The position numbers and the translations under genes are program-made. Shown piece after piece: positions 27,900 through 47,994 of a stretch of 49,419 nucleotides of DNA (its first letter is position 1; every line of letters begins with the position of its first letter). Under the pieces are notes generated by a model. It was not told the origin of the DNA and did not search any database. It saw only the letters and a list, made by a program, of their open reading frames with translations. This stretch comes from Nanobdellota archaeon (GTDB lineage: Archaea; Nanobdellota; Nanobdellia; Woesearchaeales; WJIZ01). The DNA is taken from the NCBI GenBank assembly GCA_030647105.1, contig JAUSJW010000112.1:1-49419 (forward strand), in the 5' to 3' direction.

Positions 27900-28634
27900 T
27901 TTTTCTTTCCATTTCCTTATTTTGTTGAGGTGCTTAGGGCTTTCAAATCCGATGGTCTCTTGCCATTTTCTTAGGTTGTCCTTTCCGTTCATCTCTATTC
28001 GATTTATGAACGTATATTCTCGGATTCCTCGTGGATTTTTCACAGGATAATCATAGATTTCAACCAATTGGAGTCCTCTTTTCCTAAGTTCTAATGCCAC
28101 TTCTCGTATGAGTTTCTTGCTTTGTGAGGCAAGGCTAATGACAGGATAATAAGGGATTTCTCGATATCGTTTTTTGAACGTAATACACCCATCCGTATCA
28201 AAAAGGCCGCGCAGAAAAGCGTCCATAAACTGAGGGTGCTTGCGAATTCCAGGAGGGATTTGCAAGGCATGATTTTTTCTGCCATGGTGGAGTCCAACTA
28301 TCTCAGTAAGAAATCGGAATAGTGTTTTGGAATGCAAGGCAAATCCGAAGGTTGTTCTGGAATCATGGTGCATGAACGAAGGAGTGAAGCCAAAATTCCG
28401 ATTGAATTTAGGACCGATGACATCAATATAGAGCTCCTGCTCATCTTTAGGGTTTCCGACGCATTTGATGACAAAATCATGCTTTTCTTTTCTAAGGTAA
28501 ATGCTGCCATCACCCACGAGAATACCGCAGAGATACGCAAGGTCTTCGGTAAGCTGCAATGGAAGGCAGAGTCCTCTCTTTTTATCAAGGGAACTAAGCG
28601 GGATGCGCACTTCAAGGAAGCTGTCTTGGTTCAT
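27897..28634 (-). CDS. Free-standing double-motif LAGLIDADG homing-endonuclease-like protein
   Basis: Two LAGLIDADG motifs (LCGILVGDGSI and FLRGLFDTDGCI). ATG 28634 lies 25 nt downstream of a TTTAAA-type TATA (28652-28666). The stop codon overlaps the last 3 nt of the tRNA-Met gene. The gene is visibly AT-rich. Confidence 0.75.
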   Translation of the reverse strand: MNQDSFLEVRIPLSSLDKKRGLCLPLQLTEDLAYLCGILVGDGSIYLRKEKHDFVIKCVGNPKDEQELYIDVIGPKFNRNFGFTPSFMHHDSRTTFGFALHSKTLFRFLTEIVGLHHGRKNHALQIPPGIRKHPQFMDAFLRGLFDTDGCITFKKRYREIPYYPVISLASQSKKLIREVALELRKRGLQLVEIYDYPVKNPRGIREYTFINRIEMNGKDNLRKWQETIGFESPKHLNKIRKWKEK

Positions 28635-38389: not shown

Positions 38390-38505
38390 TGCGTCGGCCG
38401 GGATTCGAACCCGGATCAAAAGCTGTCTTTGCGTAAGCAAAGGCCCAGGAAGGCCGCTGCCTGACGTGTGGAAGGCTTCTATCCTAGCCGTTGGACTACC
38501 GACGC
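38390..38505 (-). tRNA. tRNA-Gly (anticodon TCC) with a 44-nt intron at the canonical 37/38 position
   Basis: Minus-strand cloverleaf: acceptor GCGTCGG/CCGACGC, D arm GTCC/GGAT, anticodon arm GAAGC-CTTCCA[intron]A-GCTTT, T arm CCGGG-TTCGAAT-CCCGG. The intron contains hairpins GGCC/GGCC and CTTTGC-TTAC-GCAAAG. The TATA (reverse complement of about 38530-38541) lies about 30 nt upstream. Confidence 0.8.
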
Positions 38506-42920: not shown

Positions 42921-43706
42921 ATGGCCTTCCGGACTAGAATTGGATTTCTCGGCGCTGGCAATATCGCGGAAGCGATGATTGGCCGGCTGTATACAGACTC
43001 CTCTTTTGACGTCGCGGCGAGCAGGAGGGACGCAGCAAAACTCGAGGAGCTTGGCAAAAAATATGGCGTGGAAACCTACTCTAGCAACCGCGGCCTTGTT
43101 GAGCGCTCGGATGTTGTCGTTCTGGGAATAGAGCCTTCTTCGCTTGCGGCTGTATTAAAAGAGGTGCATGGGCAGCAGGCGAAGCTCTGGATTTCGCTCG
43201 TCAACGGCGCGTCGCTTGCTTATTTGCAGCAGTCGCTAGGGAAGCAGGCGCTCGTGCGTGCCATGCCTCAGATAGGATTCAAGTACGGGCACAGCGTAAC
43301 GTGGTACGCGGCAAATGGAGATTGTGCGCAAGGCGATATCGCGCTGGCGGAGCGCGTCTTCGCGGCAGGCGGCATTTCGAGGCGCATAGGGGAAAGCCAG
43401 ATGAACGCGGCGACGGCTTTCTCGTGCGAGCCCGGCCTTCTTGTGCAGGACTTGATAGCGGACCAAAAAGCGCTGGATGGCGAAGGTCTTAAGGTAGACG
43501 CGCAGGCACTCGCTTATCTCCTGAGAGGCACCGCGTCCAAAATCGAGGAGCTTGGCATTAAGGGGGCGTCAGCCTCTGTCGCGACGAAAGGTGGCTCGAC
43601 AGAGGCCGCGCATCGCTTTGCTGAAGGGAAGGGGTTGTATGCCCTGCGAGAACAGCGAGTTTCAGCTTGCGTCAGGAAGAGCGAGGAACTCTCGAGAAAA
43701 ACATAG
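42921..43706 (+). CDS. proC: Pyrroline-5-carboxylate reductase
   Basis: Rossmann N-terminus IGFLGAGNIAEAMI and a C-terminal dimerisation-domain pattern. ATG at 42921 (GTG at 42918 is also possible). Confidence 0.8.
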   Translation: MAFRTRIGFLGAGNIAEAMIGRLYTDSSFDVAASRRDAAKLEELGKKYGVETYSSNRGLVERSDVVVLGIEPSSLAAVLKEVHGQQAKLWISLVNGASLAYLQQSLGKQALVRAMPQIGFKYGHSVTWYAANGDCAQGDIALAERVFAAGGISRRIGESQMNAATAFSCEPGLLVQDLIADQKALDGEGLKVDAQALAYLLRGTASKIEELGIKGASASVATKGGSTEAAHRFAEGKGLYALREQRVSACVRKSEELSRKT

Positions 43707-44886
43707 CCAATTTCGTCTGCCTCAATTGGCTGAGCAACTTGCTTTCGCGCAGCATCCCGTCCGGAAGGAAGCCAAACTCGCTTTGTATTTTTTTTCTTAT
43801 ATATTCCAGCATCAGCTCCTTGGAGCCGAACTGCAGCGGTTGTGAGCGCATCGCGTTCCGCGCCGCCTCCCGTGTGACCCAAACGCCGAGCGGTGCGGTA
43901 TACTCTTCCGTGATGACGCGAATCGCGAGCACAGACGCCTGCCGTTTCAACTCTCGCAATTTCTCTAAGATACCGAGCCTCACGGTATAATACCCGCCAG
44001 CAGTCTCTTCGGCATAGCTAGTCCTTCCCCGGTTCGCTTCGAAGTCTGTCGACCACGTCAGCTCCTGGTTCCGAGGCACGAACGTTTCGAAGAGCTCATA
44101 GCTCCATCTCTCCGGGAAGAGCAAGACAAAGTAGTAGTTCCCGAGATGTGACCCGGTGAAGAGCAAATAATCCGCTTCAGGATAATCCCGAATCTCCTTG
44201 ATGATGTGTTTCCCCAGCATGTCATCGGTCGCCGTAATCGACCATCGTGTGGGCACTAGCTTCCGATTCTCTCCAATCCCCAGCGTCCCGACAGAGAGCA
44301 GCTTGGACAGGAAGTTCTCGTCAAACCCTTTGTCGTAAAGGGAAGTCACCGCTCCCACCGCCTTGAGGTCAGTATCGTCCACTGCCTTATCAACGCGGAC
44401 GTCAATGTGCGGATTCGACGTGAGTTCCGCCTTCTTCAGCCGGGCGTTCGGCCCCATAGGGGCAAGATGGCTGTCAGGGGTCAGCGTAAACCGCGGCACG
44501 CTCTCAAGCGAGATGTCTACATCAGTCGGCCGGGAAGCCATCCCAATCTCCTGCGCCAAAGTCAGGAACTTATCCCGCTCATGAACGTTCACCTTCTTTG
44601 AGCTATTCACGAGCTCTGAGCGGAAATCGATGATGCGGGGAATGGCGTACTTTTGCGCTGCCCAGTGCTTTGGGGCGTCATACTCCCAAGCGTTCTCCTG
44701 CCGTTCGGGAGGCGAGAGGATACCCACATTGACGTCCGGATACCCAAACCGCCCAACAAAAGGGGCTGGGGAATTGGATTGAAACTCAGGCTTCAGCACC
44801 TGCTTCACCTTGAAGATAGACCTCTTCTTGGAGCACAGCGGACAAGTGCAATCTGGGCTGTCAGTATGGACATACGAGAGACGCAT
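43672..44886 (-). CDS. nreA: Nre-family (NreA-like) archaeal DNA repair protein
   Basis: N-terminal Cys motif CTCPLC, then SPAPFVGRFGYPDVNVGILSPP and LVPTRWSITATD, as I recall for Nre_N/Nre_C. ATG 44886 lies 27 nt from the TATA at 44909-18. Confidence 0.65.
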   Translation of the reverse strand: MRLSYVHTDSPDCTCPLCSKKRSIFKVKQVLKPEFQSNSPAPFVGRFGYPDVNVGILSPPERQENAWEYDAPKHWAAQKYAIPRIIDFRSELVNSSKKVNVHERDKFLTLAQEIGMASRPTDVDISLESVPRFTLTPDSHLAPMGPNARLKKAELTSNPHIDVRVDKAVDDTDLKAVGAVTSLYDKGFDENFLSKLLSVGTLGIGENRKLVPTRWSITATDDMLGKHIIKEIRDYPEADYLLFTGSHLGNYYFVLLFPERWSYELFETFVPRNQELTWSTDFEANRGRTSYAEETAGGYYTVRLGILEKLRELKRQASVLAIRVITEEYTAPLGVWVTREAARNAMRSQPLQFGSKELMLEYIRKKIQSEFGFLPDGMLRESKLLSQLRQTKLAMFFSRVPRSS

Positions 44887-44968
44887 AGCCAAACGGAGGG
44901 TAGGCGGGCATAAATAGCTTTGGGGGAGGCACTGGACACGTAACGCGGAGAGGTGGACAGCAGTCGTT

Positions 44969-45038
44969 GCGGCTGGTCAGCCGGGGGAAGCCCCCCTCGG
45001 GGTGGCTGACGAGGGCTGCGGAGCAGCCCGACAGCCGC
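44969..45038 (+). ncRNA. Structured three-way-junction element, copy A (unassigned family)
   Basis: P1 GCGGCTG/CAGCCGC; P2 GTCAGCC/GGCTGAC; GA; P3 GGGCTGC/GCAGCCC; GA. A paralogue at 46717-46795 carries compensatory P1 changes. The strand choice is tentative and based on the GA/GA junction. Confidence 0.45.
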
Positions 45039-45116
45039 CAAACACTCAAAACCGTCGTTTTCTTGTCTCCAATCGCTTTTGGGAAGCCTTATAAACGTCC
45101 TAACCTGCCTTTCCTT

Positions 45117-46163
45117 GTGAAAGGCCTGACCGAGGAGGAGCTGGAATCCATCCGCAAAGAATTGCGGCAGTGCAAGAAGCCCCTCTTTTTCTACGATGAT
45201 GACGCGGATGGCGTGACGAGCTTCCTTTTGCTCTACCGCTGGGTCAAGGAAGGCAAGGGCATCATCGTCAAGAGCAAGCCGACCGTGGACGAGAGCTTCG
45301 CGAGAAAAGTCGAAGAGCTCGATCCGGACAAGGTGTTTGTGCTCGACATGGCTGTCATGACTGAGGAGTTTGTCGCGGCCTGTCATCGCCCCATCATCTG
45401 GATTGACCACCACCAGCCCCTCCGGCTCGACAATGTCAAGTATTTCAACCCGCGAAAGCACGTTTCAGATATCGTCTATCCTACTTCCAACATCTGCTAC
45501 GACATCGTCCAGCAAGACCTGTGGCTCGCGATGGTCGGCTGTGTGGGCGATTGGCACCTTCCCTATTTCACAAAAGAGTTCTGCAAGCAGTACCCCGACC
45601 TGTTGAACGCGGATGTCAAGAACCCCGACGACGCCTTATTCGACTCCAAGATAGGAAAACTAGTGCATATCGTGAGCTTCCTGCTCAAAGGCGATACCAA
45701 GGAAGTGAAGAAGTGCGTCGAAATGCTCGGGAAAGTCCAGTCGCCCTACGAGATTCTCAATCAAGAGACAGATGCGGGCAAGTATCTGGTGAAGAAATAC
45801 GAAGCCCTCTCGCACGATTACCGCAAGCTCCTGCAGGAAGCGAAGAAGAAGGCGGGCAAGGGTAAGCTGCTTGTTTTCGCTTACAACGATGATAGGATGA
45901 GTTTCACGAGCGAGCTCTCGAATGAGCTCCTCCACATCCACCCCGATAAACTTGTTATCATCGCGCGCAAAAAGGACGGCTCGATGCGCATGAGCCTGCG
46001 CTGTTCCTGGGCCAATATTCCTCCGATGCTGGATAAGGCGCTTTCGGGTCTGCAGGGAAGGGGCGGCGGGCATGAGCACGCCTGCGGAGCCGATGTTGCC
46101 GCCGAACAGTTCGACGAGTTTCTCCAGCGGCTCGAGAAATTAGCGGATGAAGAGAAGAAGTAA
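45117..46163 (+). CDS. DHH/DHHA1-family phosphoesterase (RecJ/NrnA-like)
   Basis: FFYDDDADG, IWIDHHQP and GGGHEHACGA motifs. I place the start at in-frame GTG 45117, about 25 nt downstream of the TATA at 45089-45096. The track start at 44967 lies upstream of that TATA. Confidence 0.8.
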   Translation: MKGLTEEELESIRKELRQCKKPLFFYDDDADGVTSFLLLYRWVKEGKGIIVKSKPTVDESFARKVEELDPDKVFVLDMAVMTEEFVAACHRPIIWIDHHQPLRLDNVKYFNPRKHVSDIVYPTSNICYDIVQQDLWLAMVGCVGDWHLPYFTKEFCKQYPDLLNADVKNPDDALFDSKIGKLVHIVSFLLKGDTKEVKKCVEMLGKVQSPYEILNQETDAGKYLVKKYEALSHDYRKLLQEAKKKAGKGKLLVFAYNDDRMSFTSELSNELLHIHPDKLVIIARKKDGSMRMSLRCSWANIPPMLDKALSGLQGRGGGHEHACGADVAAEQFDEFLQRLEKLADEEKK

Positions 46164-46350
46164 CGTAAATTTTATATACTGGGTTCTGTCTTCTTCCTTC
46201 TATGACGTTTGCTTGCGACTTGATGCGTAAGATTCCGCTTGCCTAAAGGCTAGCGCATCGTCCCGATTTCTTCAACACGCGTTTCGCGACGTGGTGTCTT
46301 TTTATCGCCGTGTATGATGATTTCTAGAGGATGCGTGTGCCACCCCGACC

Positions 46351-46692
46351 ATGACAGAACTCGACGAACACGCGAAGGCGTTCCTGAACGCGCTTGATTT
46401 TTACGGCGAAGATACTGCCAAGGAGATTCGGGCGGCCCTCACCGAGTATCTGACTGCGATGGGCCTCTCGTCGCTCGCCGTCAGGTTCAGGCACGCGCAT
46501 CTCGAGCACCAGACCGCCCCCTTCGAGAATGTCGTCCGGATGCGCAATCCCCTCCCCCTCCTATGCCTCCAGCCCGGCTACCTGAAAGAAGGCAAATCTC
46601 CTGTCGGGTTAGTCGCCGCTCTCAAGGAAGCCTATTTCGAGAAAGGCAACGTCCCCGAAGAGATGAGATGGCCGGATACGATACACTATTAG
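46351..46692 (+). CDS. Hypothetical protein (113 aa)
   Basis: ORF only; no family recognised. Confidence 0.45.
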   Translation: MTELDEHAKAFLNALDFYGEDTAKEIRAALTEYLTAMGLSSLAVRFRHAHLEHQTAPFENVVRMRNPLPLLCLQPGYLKEGKSPVGLVAALKEAYFEKGNVPEEMRWPDTIHY

Positions 46693-46716
46693 GGGAGATG
46701 TGCTAACGTAAGTAGG

Positions 46717-46795
46717 AGCCAGTTGGCGCCGGTCAGCCAATTTTCTTGGCTGACGAGGGCTCGAAGAGCCCGACGGCGCCTTCCTCTAACTGGCT
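46717..46795 (+). ncRNA. Structured three-way-junction element, copy B (with an extra outer stem)
   Basis: Outer stem AGCCAGTT/AACTGGCT; P1 GGCGCCG/CGGCGCC; P2 GTCAGCC/GGCTGAC; GA; P3 GGGCTC/GAGCCC; GA. Lies between two convergent gene ends. Confidence 0.45.
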
Positions 46796-46804
46796 ATTTA
46801 GCAA

Positions 46805-46936
46805 TTAAATCGTTCGCTTCTTCATATCCTTAACTTTCTTCTCGCTCACCGGAATGTCCGAATTCTCGTCAATATCCATATCCCGCTCAGCCTCTTCCCA
46901 CGCTTGCCGCAATTTCCTATTGAGTTTGTTATCCAT
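46805..46936 (-). CDS. Candidate small ORF (43 aa), coupled to the HD gene
   Basis: My own translation: MDNKLNRKLRQAWEEAERDMDIDENSDIPVSEKKVKDMKKRTI. Its ATG overlaps the HD gene stop (ATGGATAA). Too short for the ORF track and supported by nothing else. Confidence 0.25.
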   Translation of the reverse strand: MDNKLNRKLRQAWEEAERDMDIDENSDIPVSEKKVKDMKKRTI

Positions 46937-47456
46937 GCGTCATCCCCTCCACTTCGTCTTTTAAAGCGATAAACCTATCAACTTGGTCAGGCAGTTCTTG
47001 AGTATACCGTTCCACAACCGCGGAGAACGGCTTTTCCACATGCCCGAAAACCAAATTGTCCGCGTGCGCGATGATTTTCTCTTCTTTTGAAACAGGAACG
47101 TACTCTTGAGGGGGCAAAGGCAGCTTCTTTGCGAGAATTTCCTTTTTTGTAATCCCTGCCCCGATATGTCGCTCAGCGATGAGCGCCAACGATTCAGGAA
47201 GCCCCTCTTTTCTCAAAATCTCCCCTCCAATGATTCCGTGCTTTATCCCTTCCTTTCCCAGTCCAGCTTTATACCTGCCAATATCATGCAATAAACTTCC
47301 AATCCGAATCAGCTCAAGGTCGACTCCAGGCACCTGTTTCCCAATCCTCAGCGCAATCTCCTTCACTTTCTGCACATGCGCGAGAATCTTGTGGAAAATC
47401 TCATCGCTAGTGATATGCTTCCGTAAGAGCGCGACAGCCTGTTCTTCGGTAATCAT
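46929..47456 (-). CDS. HD-domain metal-dependent phosphohydrolase
   Basis: LLHDIGR and the HxxxxxD pattern. TATA (47476-87, minus sense) lies 25 nt upstream. Confidence 0.8.
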   Translation of the reverse strand: MITEEQAVALLRKHITSDEIFHKILAHVQKVKEIALRIGKQVPGVDLELIRIGSLLHDIGRYKAGLGKEGIKHGIIGGEILRKEGLPESLALIAERHIGAGITKKEILAKKLPLPPQEYVPVSKEEKIIAHADNLVFGHVEKPFSAVVERYTQELPDQVDRFIALKDEVEGMTHG

Positions 47457-47756
47457 AATGTTGTTAGGAGAACCACTCTTTTAAGGGTTTCTAAAAGAGA
47501 AGCGATTCCAACGTATCCATAGGATTCTAAGTCATTCCTTTTCAAAAAGAAAGCCTTCGGCGGGGTACGATTATTTTTTAGGGCAGAACCCTGAACGGGA
47601 TTGCTTCAAGATTACATTCCCCTAAGCAAATCAAACAAATCAAGAATCACGTCAATCCCGTAGACCATCCGGAAGCGCAAGAGGACGTTGGAAGCGATAA
47701 TCAAGAGAATCAGGATCCAGACACTTCGTTTGGCCTTCTTGGAATACATAAGTAAG

Positions 47757-47948
47757 AGGGGGCCCGAAGGCCCCCTTAGGTTATTTCGTGAAAGATGGCT
47801 TGCGCCATCCGATGAGCGAAGGCAGGCAGGACTCCTGCCTGCCAAAATCCTCTTTTTCCCTAAGTCGTGGGAACGTAAGGTAGGAAAAGGAAAGGCTCCT
47901 GCCATTGTTTGTGGGGGGTGGTTAAGAACAAGGGGAGCAGGAGCCTTT
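47757..47948 (-). other. Cluster of three strong GC-rich hairpins in a 0.5-kb stretch without a convincing gene
   Basis: H1 at 47757-47776 has an 8-bp stem; on the minus strand the loop is a C(UUCG)G tetraloop. H2 at 47821-47843 has a 10-bp stem and 3-nt loop. H3 pairs 47891-47902 with 47937-47948 (12 bp, 34-nt loop). Confidence 0.6.
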
Positions 47949-47994
47949 GAATGGGAGGAGCGATGCCTGGCAACGCTTCATGCTAGCGCTCTAG

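Follow-up and report, generated by a model that had tools for sequence, protein, structure and literature searches.

The window analysed here, by which we mean the whole 49-kb stretch of 49,419 nucleotides, is unremarkable chromosomal DNA from a Woesearchaeota/Nanoarchaeota (DPANN) archaeon. Its housekeeping content includes AlaRS, thermosome, GatD/E, FtsY, SMC and others, and the nearest named homologues of its DHH and HD proteins are found in Candidatus Woesearchaeota and Nanoarchaeota MAGs. As the initial annotation had described, two related hairpins, copy A and copy B, flank a DHH phosphoesterase gene and a 113-aa ORF (ORF113), in the following arrangement.

43672..44886, minus strand: Nre-family gene, divergent from DHH, ATG at 44886 (Pfam Nre_N/Nre_C seen on the orthologue of relative L109)
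44942..45059, plus strand: copy A, full composite hairpin of 118 nt (from the fold)
45117..46163, plus strand: DHH/DHHA1 phosphoesterase gene, GTG start at 45117
46351..46692, plus strand: ORF113 (113 aa), stop at 46692
46702..46802, plus strand: copy B, full composite hairpin of 101 nt (from the fold of 46693-46810)
46805..47456, minus strand: ORF43 (43 aa) and HD-domain gene, convergent on copy B, ORF43 stop at 46805

Copy A is positioned in the 224-bp spacer between the divergent Nre and DHH promoters, with the TATA-like box of the Nre gene at ~44908-44917 and that of DHH at ~45088-45096; promoter-like AACC-TTTTTATAT boxes are found repeatedly in the window. Both genes are apparently leaderless, a reading that for DHH follows from a TATA box only ~25 nt 5' of the GTG start. 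Because copy A lies upstream of the DHH promoter and the DHH mRNA appears to be leaderless, copy A is probably outside the DHH transcript, and inspection of its sequence revealed no recognisable archaeal BRE/TATA box belonging to copy A itself. Both points appear to weaken the earlier suggestion that the two copies act as paired processing or termination sites. Copy B nearly fills the 112-nt convergent gap between the ORF113 and ORF43 stops, beginning 10 nt after the ORF113 stop with its outer stem at 25 nt, and it probably falls within the 3' UTR of ORF113 and likewise in the 3' end of the ORF43/HD transcript.

When 30 proteins encoded in 1-35.6 kb of the window were scanned with Pfam, the genes proved to be of housekeeping type only, with no transposase or integrase. 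The sole mobile-type domain in that scan is carried by a free-standing 245-aa LAGLIDADG_3 homing-endonuclease-like protein (27900-28634, minus strand), which lies amid housekeeping genes 16 kb away from the elements. Elsewhere in the window, a tRNA gene with a 46-nt intron (38390-38505, minus strand) scores 54 bits with the Rfam tRNA model and is missed by ARAGORN.

Architecture of the two hairpins

Each copy is a composite hairpin whose apex is a three-way junction. The parts of copy B, all on the plus strand, are as follows.

46702-46706 / 46798-46802: basal stem, GCTAA / TTAGC (fold)
46712..46715: GTAG tetranucleotide, separated from the outer stem on its 3' side by 1 nt
46717-46724 / 46788-46795: outer stem, AGCCAGTT / AACTGGCT (sequence and fold)
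46725-46780: core from P1 to P1', a three-way junction in the order P1-P2-GA-P3-GA-P1'
46725-46731 / 46774-46780: P1, GGCGCCG / CGGCGCC (fold)
46732..46754: P2 hairpin, GTCAGCC (46732-46738) / GGCTGAC (46748-46754), with a 9-nt loop AATTTTCTT
46755..46756: junction GA between P2 and P3, same in copy A
46757..46771: P3 hairpin, GGGCTC (46757-46762) / GAGCCC (46766-46771), with a GAA loop
46772..46773: junction GA between P3 and the 3' strand of P1, same in copy A
46781..46787: 7-nt bulge TTCCTCT between P1 and the outer stem (sequence and fold)

The corresponding parts of copy A, again on the plus strand, are these.

44942-44948 / 45052-45059: basal stem, AACGCGG / CCGTCGTT (CCG(T)CGTT) (fold)
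44953..44956: GTGG, counterpart of the GTAG of copy B
44962-44968 / 45040-45046: inner basal stem, AGT..TT / AA..ACT (fold)
44969..45038: three-way-junction core, same architecture and same orientation as copy B
44969-44975 / 45032-45038: P1, GCGGCTG / CAGCCGC
44976-44983 / 45003-45010: P2, GTCAGCC(G) / (T)GGCTGAC, with an inserted GGGGG-AAGC-CCCCC hairpin
45011-45012 and 45030-45031: junction GAs
45013-45029: P3, GGGCTGC-GGA-GCAGCCC
45039: 1-nt bulge (C), against the 7-nt TTCCTCT of copy B

All helices that the initial annotation had proposed for copy B are present in the sequence at the coordinates it gave, and the minimum-free-energy fold of 46710-46800 (91 nt) is exactly that structure, at -50.0 kcal/mol (z = -6.9; 0 of 200 shuffles equally stable). 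Copy B is the top stability outlier over all 90-nt windows of the 49 kb (z = -5.4 after GC regression), and its P2 loop can be shrunk to 5 nt via two additional A-U pairs. For copy A, the junction is the minimum-energy fold of the 70-nt core and, with DNA parameters, of the 141-nt context; with RNA parameters, the plus strand in 101-nt and 141-nt contexts prefers a competing pairing of GGUGGCUG with CAGCCGCC, and the junction is then not the minimum-energy fold. Each copy is of nearly equal stability on its two strands and with RNA or DNA parameters, so that neither the strand nor the type of molecule can be identified from energetics.

The shared architecture and orientation of the two copies, likewise proposed at the outset, are borne out by a local alignment of the two intergenic regions that scores 43 against 17.0 +/- 2.4 for shuffles, and by a covariance model built from the two copies, which scores A at 93.6 bits and B at 72.4 bits, these being the same two sequences on which it was trained. 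With filters off, the next best match of the model in the window (14.7 bits) is the reverse strand of copy B, and a hand-written descriptor (P1 of at least 5, P2 of at least 5, GA, P3 of at least 4, GA) run over 942 kb found only minimal-length helix matches elsewhere. The junction-proximal bases are identical at 30 of 30 positions, a set comprising the last P1 G-C pair, the 7-bp P2 (GTCAGCC/GGCTGAC), both GAs and the proximal 5-bp P3 (GGGCT/AGCCC); conservation of the P3 side branch thus goes beyond a palindrome alone, as had been claimed. P1, on the other hand, differs in three of its seven pairs, each change being compensated (GCGGCUG/CAGCCGC in A vs GGCGCCG/CGGCGCC in B). Six of its 12 variable-position bases are changed, and all six differences fall within these 12 P1 positions out of 42 (hypergeometric p = 1.8e-4). 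A covariation statistic reached its observed value in 62 of 500 shuffles, two sequences being too few for significance.

Away from this core the copies diverge in sequence and retain their capacity to fold. The P2 loop is unrelated between them, with 9 nt in B and 21 nt in A that form a hairpin of their own, whereas the P3 apex in both is a GNA triloop with a C-G closing pair (GAA in B, GGA in A). The basal and outer stems differ between the copies yet remain self-complementary. Homology runs outward from P1 through ...AGC(C)AGT(CG)TTG to the GT(A/G)G tetranucleotide, which in each copy precedes the outer stem by 1-2 nt, a recurrence that with n = 2 may be due to chance. On the plus strand, one base pair takes the form G·U in A and A-U in B; read from the minus strand, it would be a C·A mismatch. 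From these comparisons, A and B are real, mutually related, structure-constrained elements. They lie within 1.8 kb, in gaps 1.7 kb apart, a closeness for which we roughly estimate p ~0.09 under random placement among the ~48 gaps.

As a separate observation, the 8-mer TTTTCTTG occurs both at 45057-45064, just 3' of copy A, and at 46741-46748, in the P2 loop of copy B; this sharing may be a coincidence (rough chance ~0.15) or may reflect a common oligo-T signal.

Relatives, searches and neighbouring spacers

DHH has 1247 homologues at E<=1e-3 and is a core Woesearchaeota gene, and the surroundings of the elements can be followed in several relatives. An 88%-identical relative (L109) has the gene order of the window, MgtC-DUF4145-tRNA_bind-P5CR-Nre-DHH-ORF113, with the start of an ORF113 homologue present directly after DHH. 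Its Nre-DHH spacer of ~90 bp is without copy A, and the surplus of ~125 bp in the window spacer matches the copy A composite hairpin in size. In a 58% relative (L124), Nre and DHH are adjacent across an AT-rich spacer that is also without the element. Around copy B, a contig whose ORF113 is 80% identical (L122) has the ORF separated by 22 bp from a convergent gene that is not the one in the window, and copy B is missing. A 77-83% relative (L110-L118, L144-L153) has ORF43 followed by a 38-bp gap, the element being absent at the corresponding place in L144; here ~7 kb separate DHH-ORF111 from Nre, and the 350-nt spacer that comes after DHH-ORF111 is structured and gives no match to the covariance model. 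ORF113, termed an orphan in the initial annotation, is thus no singleton, with homologues following DHH in L109 and L110 and another on L122. Judged from these sequences, the genes stay while the elements come and go, and A and B are lineage-specific additions. Because four-fold-type sites of DHH are 46% identical between the window and L109, neutral sequence can be considered saturated at this distance, and the two spacers at site A are too diverged for a target-site duplication to be defined there.

The covariance model, with filters off, detected no further copy in the window or in ~200 kb of related Woesearchaeota contigs, which span 58-88% protein identity (L109-L119, L122, L124-L127, L144-L151). 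Searched with Rfam 15 at gathering thresholds, the whole window yields two tRNAs only and no family for A or B, and at E<=10 the interval 44900-46900 gives sub-threshold noise only. A GTDB scan of 185,579 species genomes for the exact pattern GGCTGACGAGGGC-N3-14-GCCCGAC returned 102 matches, all attributable to chance; they are mostly in GC-rich bacteria, lie in coding sequence where the context was read, and in no case have the GTCAGCC arm of P2 upstream. A stricter three-block pattern gave two matches in JGI metagenomes, both in a bacterial vWA-like gene and not hairpins, and two patterns gave 5 and 16 chance matches in IMG/VR, none of which passes the covariance model with intact helices. 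Such pattern scans demand exact matches to the conserved blocks and so miss diverged relatives. No match was obtained by blastn of 44930-46810 against phage and plasmid collections. Within the sequence searched, the element is known as these two copies only, and it does not behave as the generic many-locus repeat that had been considered at the outset.

Several known structures were considered and rejected. A tRNA, tRNA-like or split-tRNA identity is contradicted by wrong arm geometry and by the lack of detection with ARAGORN and the tRNA model, while for a BHB intron, H/ACA, C/D box, SECIS, attC or ORB the defining boxes or geometry are absent from the sequence.

The comparison with relatives also brought out features of the surrounding DNA that are of interest in their own right. 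Whereas the 77-83% relative has the ORF43-HD block upstream of AlaRS, the window has it in inverted orientation, directly beside ORF113; copy B therefore sits exactly at a lineage-specific rearrangement junction. The same relative (L144, L110) has ~7 kb with PPDK/PEP-utilizer, HD and TrmB genes between Nre and DHH. At the empty site A of L109 (4437-4453), GTCGGCGCCTCATCCCC resembles the 3' end of copy B, GACGGCGCCTTCCTCT, at 12 of 17 bases including the 8-mer CGGCGCCT; the likeness may be coincidental or may mark the residue of an element since lost. The structured spacer after the ORF113 homologue in L110 (9317-9668; 77% relative) is a 350-nt GC-rich, multi-branched region with a predicted fold of -150.6 kcal/mol (z = -3.6) and no Rfam match, and it may be an unannotated structured RNA gene.

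Two further spacers of the window are distinctive. Between DHH and ORF113 (46164-46350; L109 5557-5714, L110 8818-8980, L122 1-162), a strong BRE/TATA-like AACGTAAATTTTATATA overlaps the DHH stop, and a block GGATTC...TGCCTAAAGGCTAG.GCATCGT.C(T/C)GATT is kept in four of four genomes (the window, L109, L110 and L122), followed in the window by a hairpin and T5 at 46278-46302. In L122, a perfect UGAUGAG box lies upstream and a CUGA lies downstream. The spacer has no Rfam match and is a candidate for a conserved ~100-nt small RNA or an ORF113 leader. The second most stable region of the window, 47457-47994, comprises 540 bp without a called gene or an Rfam match and contains several perfect GC hairpins, listed below. 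A 97-aa ORF within it (47612-47905, minus strand) may be real, since relatives have a 121-aa gene at that position.

47759-76: GC hairpin GGGGGCCCGAAGGCCCCC
47822-44: GC hairpin GGCAGGCAGGACTCCTGCCTGCC
~47893-47945: GC hairpin GGCTCCTGC...GCAGGAGCC

Origin and role of the hairpins

The reading that we rank first, and hold tentatively, is that A and B belong to a REP/PATE/MITE-like hairpin insertion module. On this view, a small non-coding DNA module that forms hairpins would have been inserted twice, long enough ago for the two insertions to have diverged, each insertion being a 100-118-bp imperfect palindrome with the conserved branched core (P2, GA, P3, GA) at its apex. Folded as a single strand, such a module could be recognised and copied by an enzyme specific for hairpins (an HUH/Y1-type transposase or similar) that acts in trans and is encoded elsewhere in the genome; alternatively, template switching could have duplicated it locally into a neighbouring gap. 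Being the recognised part, the apex would be retained, and either a requirement for folding or quasi-palindrome correction could keep the stems complementary. Insertions would be tolerated in the gaps where they landed, between divergent promoters for A and at convergent gene ends for B, and any effect on the flanking genes would be secondary; copy B, for instance, could block 3' exonucleases or read-through.

Empty orthologous sites in L109, L122, L124 and L144 support this insertion reading, as do the opposite transcriptional types of the two gaps (divergent for A, convergent for B) and the self-complementarity of the entire inserted unit, in which both strands and DNA parameters fold alike. 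Insertion also fits better than a cis-acting RNA signal because the gap types are opposite, copy A is probably outside a transcript and no TATA box accompanies it, and a young, lineage-restricted repeat would be expected to be absent from Rfam and from the ~200 kb of relatives' contigs. With REP/REPIN, PATE and MITE-like elements, A and B share a GC-rich imperfect palindrome restricted to intergenic gaps, presence and absence between close relatives, compensated stem differences and equal folding on both strands. The P3 apex (GCGGAGC in A, CGAAG in B) is a mini-hairpin of the d(GCGNAGC) class, which Hirao et al. reportedly described as unusually stable DNA mini-hairpins. REPs carry a conserved 5' tag, GTAG (PMC3733652) or CGTC, and the GT(A/G)G just 5' of the palindrome in A and B, although it may be due to chance, recalls REPs with the GTAG tag.

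Several observations run counter to the insertion reading. Typical REPs and MITEs are dispersed and numerous, whereas only two copies are present here, with none in the other 47 kb of the window. No transposase or integrase, and no Y1 transposase in particular, was detected in the ~35.6 kb scanned with Pfam, and we know of no REP/RAYT systems in DPANN archaea. 

A and B measure 100-118 nt and have a branched apex, against the 20-40-nt simple hairpin of REP/REPIN elements, and they differ further in the two local copies, the lack of a RAYT/TnpA gene in the sequence seen, the DPANN host and an interior more conserved than the termini. This last pattern is the reverse of a TIR-type MITE, a class that A and B fail to join, their P1, outer and basal stems being the least conserved part. 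No convincing target-site duplication was found; a GTCGTT 6-mer at 44964 and 45054 could be due to chance. An invariant core beside a changed P1 is equally expected from host selection on a functional RNA core. Tandem GA/GA beside a helix is a classic RNA motif, and here it is specific to the plus strand, the sense strand of DHH and ORF113.

The last two points lead to a possible, if on balance unlikely, alternative in which the copies are a host-selected structured RNA, a small RNA or cis element read from the plus strand. In the model for such an RNA, P1 and P2 would be coaxial and P3 extended by tandem sheared G·A pairs, as in a k-junction or hammerhead domain 2, while the junction would be bound by protein or serve as a 3'-end protecting or processing signal, with P1 as a closing helix free to covary. 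Its appeal is that 30 invariant bases, compensated changes in three of seven P1 pairs and an unrelated P2 loop form a pattern typical of RNA families, that the GA/GA junction and the GNA loops make sense on the plus strand only, as does the G·U/A-U pair, and that copy B probably lies in the ORF113 3' UTR. The proximity of the copies (p ~0.09, as estimated above) points the same way. Against it stand the position of copy A, without BRE/TATA and upstream of an apparently leaderless DHH promoter, the preference of copy A as RNA for a competing fold in longer contexts, the non-significant covariation and the lack of an Rfam match; moreover, absence from the orthologous sites of every relative examined means that any function is not conserved with the genes.

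The likeness to k-junctions concerns topology. Known k-junctions, such as those of the TPP riboswitch and DUF-3268 RNA, sit within larger functional RNAs, and in k-turns the L1-L3 loop nucleotides supply the L1 O2' to A1n contact. A and B have no L1-L3 and no connecting nucleotides, the 3' strand of P2 being followed in both copies by the first GA with 0 unpaired nt in between. In a k-junction, the NC helix is flanked by tandem G·A/A·G pairs and a third helix, carried by the non-bulged strand, stacks coaxially on C (PMC10573300); the predicted secondary-structure topology of A and B satisfies this definition with C = P2, NC = P3 with G·A/A·G, and T = P1 coaxial. A more specific proposal, which we consider improbable, is that the conserved core (G-C pair, 7-bp P2, GA, 5-bp P3, GA, with a CUGANGA-stem-GA like half a hammerhead) would be an undescribed DPANN RNA junction motif, kept by selection at two loci and marking or processing transcripts around DHH-ORF113. 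Its variants could include a loop-less k-junction-like protein platform or a novel or vestigial catalytic core.

It is hard to credit that the copies cleave themselves as ribozymes, whether of a variant hammerhead type or of a new class, and so serve as paired RNA processing sites. The hammerhead consensus comprises C3-A9 CUGANGA, a stem II with G10.1-C11.1, and G12 A13, to which GGCUGACGA-[GGGCUC..GAGCCC]-GA corresponds; A and B share with hammerheads the CUGACGA string, a G-C-closed helix, the GA, potential tandem sheared G·A pairs and a three-way junction, and copy A gives a weak Hammerhead_II match (19.7 bits, E = 0.74). That match, however, is in a different register and far below the gathering score of 37, and no other ribozyme family appears at E<=10. 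A14, the A15.1-U16.1 pair and an unpaired H17 are lacking, the sequence reads GAC-stem instead of GAAA-stem, a perfect P2 pairs all of CUGAC with GUCAG and so leaves no single-stranded cleavage-site strand, and copy A is probably not in an mRNA. The hammerhead family (Rfam CL00010) was accordingly rejected, given the incomplete catalytic core and base-paired CUGAC of the copies and a sub-threshold match in copy A only.

At the level of DNA, operator-like or cruciform palindromes could insulate or co-regulate DHH-ORF113 with respect to its neighbours, an arrangement suggested by copies that flank one transcription unit, by the place of copy A exactly between two divergent promoters and by equal folding of both strands. 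We judge such a regulatory or architectural site improbable, as the P2 half-sites are separated by 9 bp in B and by 21 bp in A, a spacing unsuited to a single dimeric protein, the same genes occur in relatives without the element, and nothing ties the element to any regulator gene. Least credible, together with the ribozyme, is the proposal that A and B delimit a cassette or serve as recombination sites, of attC-like or IS200/IS605 LE/RE-like type, through which DHH and ORF113 would move together. The initial annotation had raised the cassette on the grounds of structured sites in direct orientation flanking two ORFs, and the stem-bulge-stem with a branched apex does resemble a folded attC. 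Synteny shows the opposite: L109 keeps the gene pair beside Nre without copy A, L124 keeps DHH beside Nre without it, and L122 has ORF113 without copy B. Because relatives keep the genes without the elements, the cassette reading is refuted. DHH is in any case a core gene, and the GC content of the A-to-B interval is ordinary.

Integron attC sites, including those reported in archaea, likewise fold as single strands, with an unpaired spacer or bulge separating the outer from the inner stem and an apex that varies and is sometimes branched, and they too follow ORFs in direct orientation. The arms here nevertheless read ...CAGTT / AACTG... and not RYYYAAC / GTTRRRY: in AGCCAGTT ... AACTGGCT the 5' arm contains GTT and the 3' arm AAC, with R''/R' polarity reversed. 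No integrase (~35.6 kb Pfam scan) and no attI accompany the copies, and the genes that they flank are core ones, syntenic in L109 without the site. With IS200/IS605 LE/RE ends, the copies share the arrangement of two similar same-strand hairpins flanking a segment, and recognition would be of folded ssDNA. The A-B segment, however, contains no tnpA/tnpB and is syntenic in relatives, no TnpA appears in the ~35.6 kb Pfam scan, P2 and P3 are mutually dissimilar, unlike LE and RE hairpins, and a HEARO match (16 bits, E = 1.9) is not significant.

In summary, the A/B pair consists of genuine, statistically solid, lineage-specific branched hairpins that are best filed with small palindromic intergenic repeats. 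The data leave the insertion module and the host-selected RNA undistinguished; we place the insertion module first, as a tentative choice, and the functional RNA second, as the less likely of the two. The practical outcome is negative, in that A and B are not the limits of a gene cassette, and two copies on one contig amount to a well-defined curiosity rather than a discovery. Small repeat elements and structured non-coding RNAs of DPANN archaea are almost undescribed, and the reduced genomes of these organisms are thought to be low in spare DNA. If the mobile hairpin module is the true reading, a single-strand-DNA mobilisation system in Woesearchaeota would be indicated; if the selected RNA is, a compact tandem-G·A three-way-junction motif without an Rfam relative would be added.
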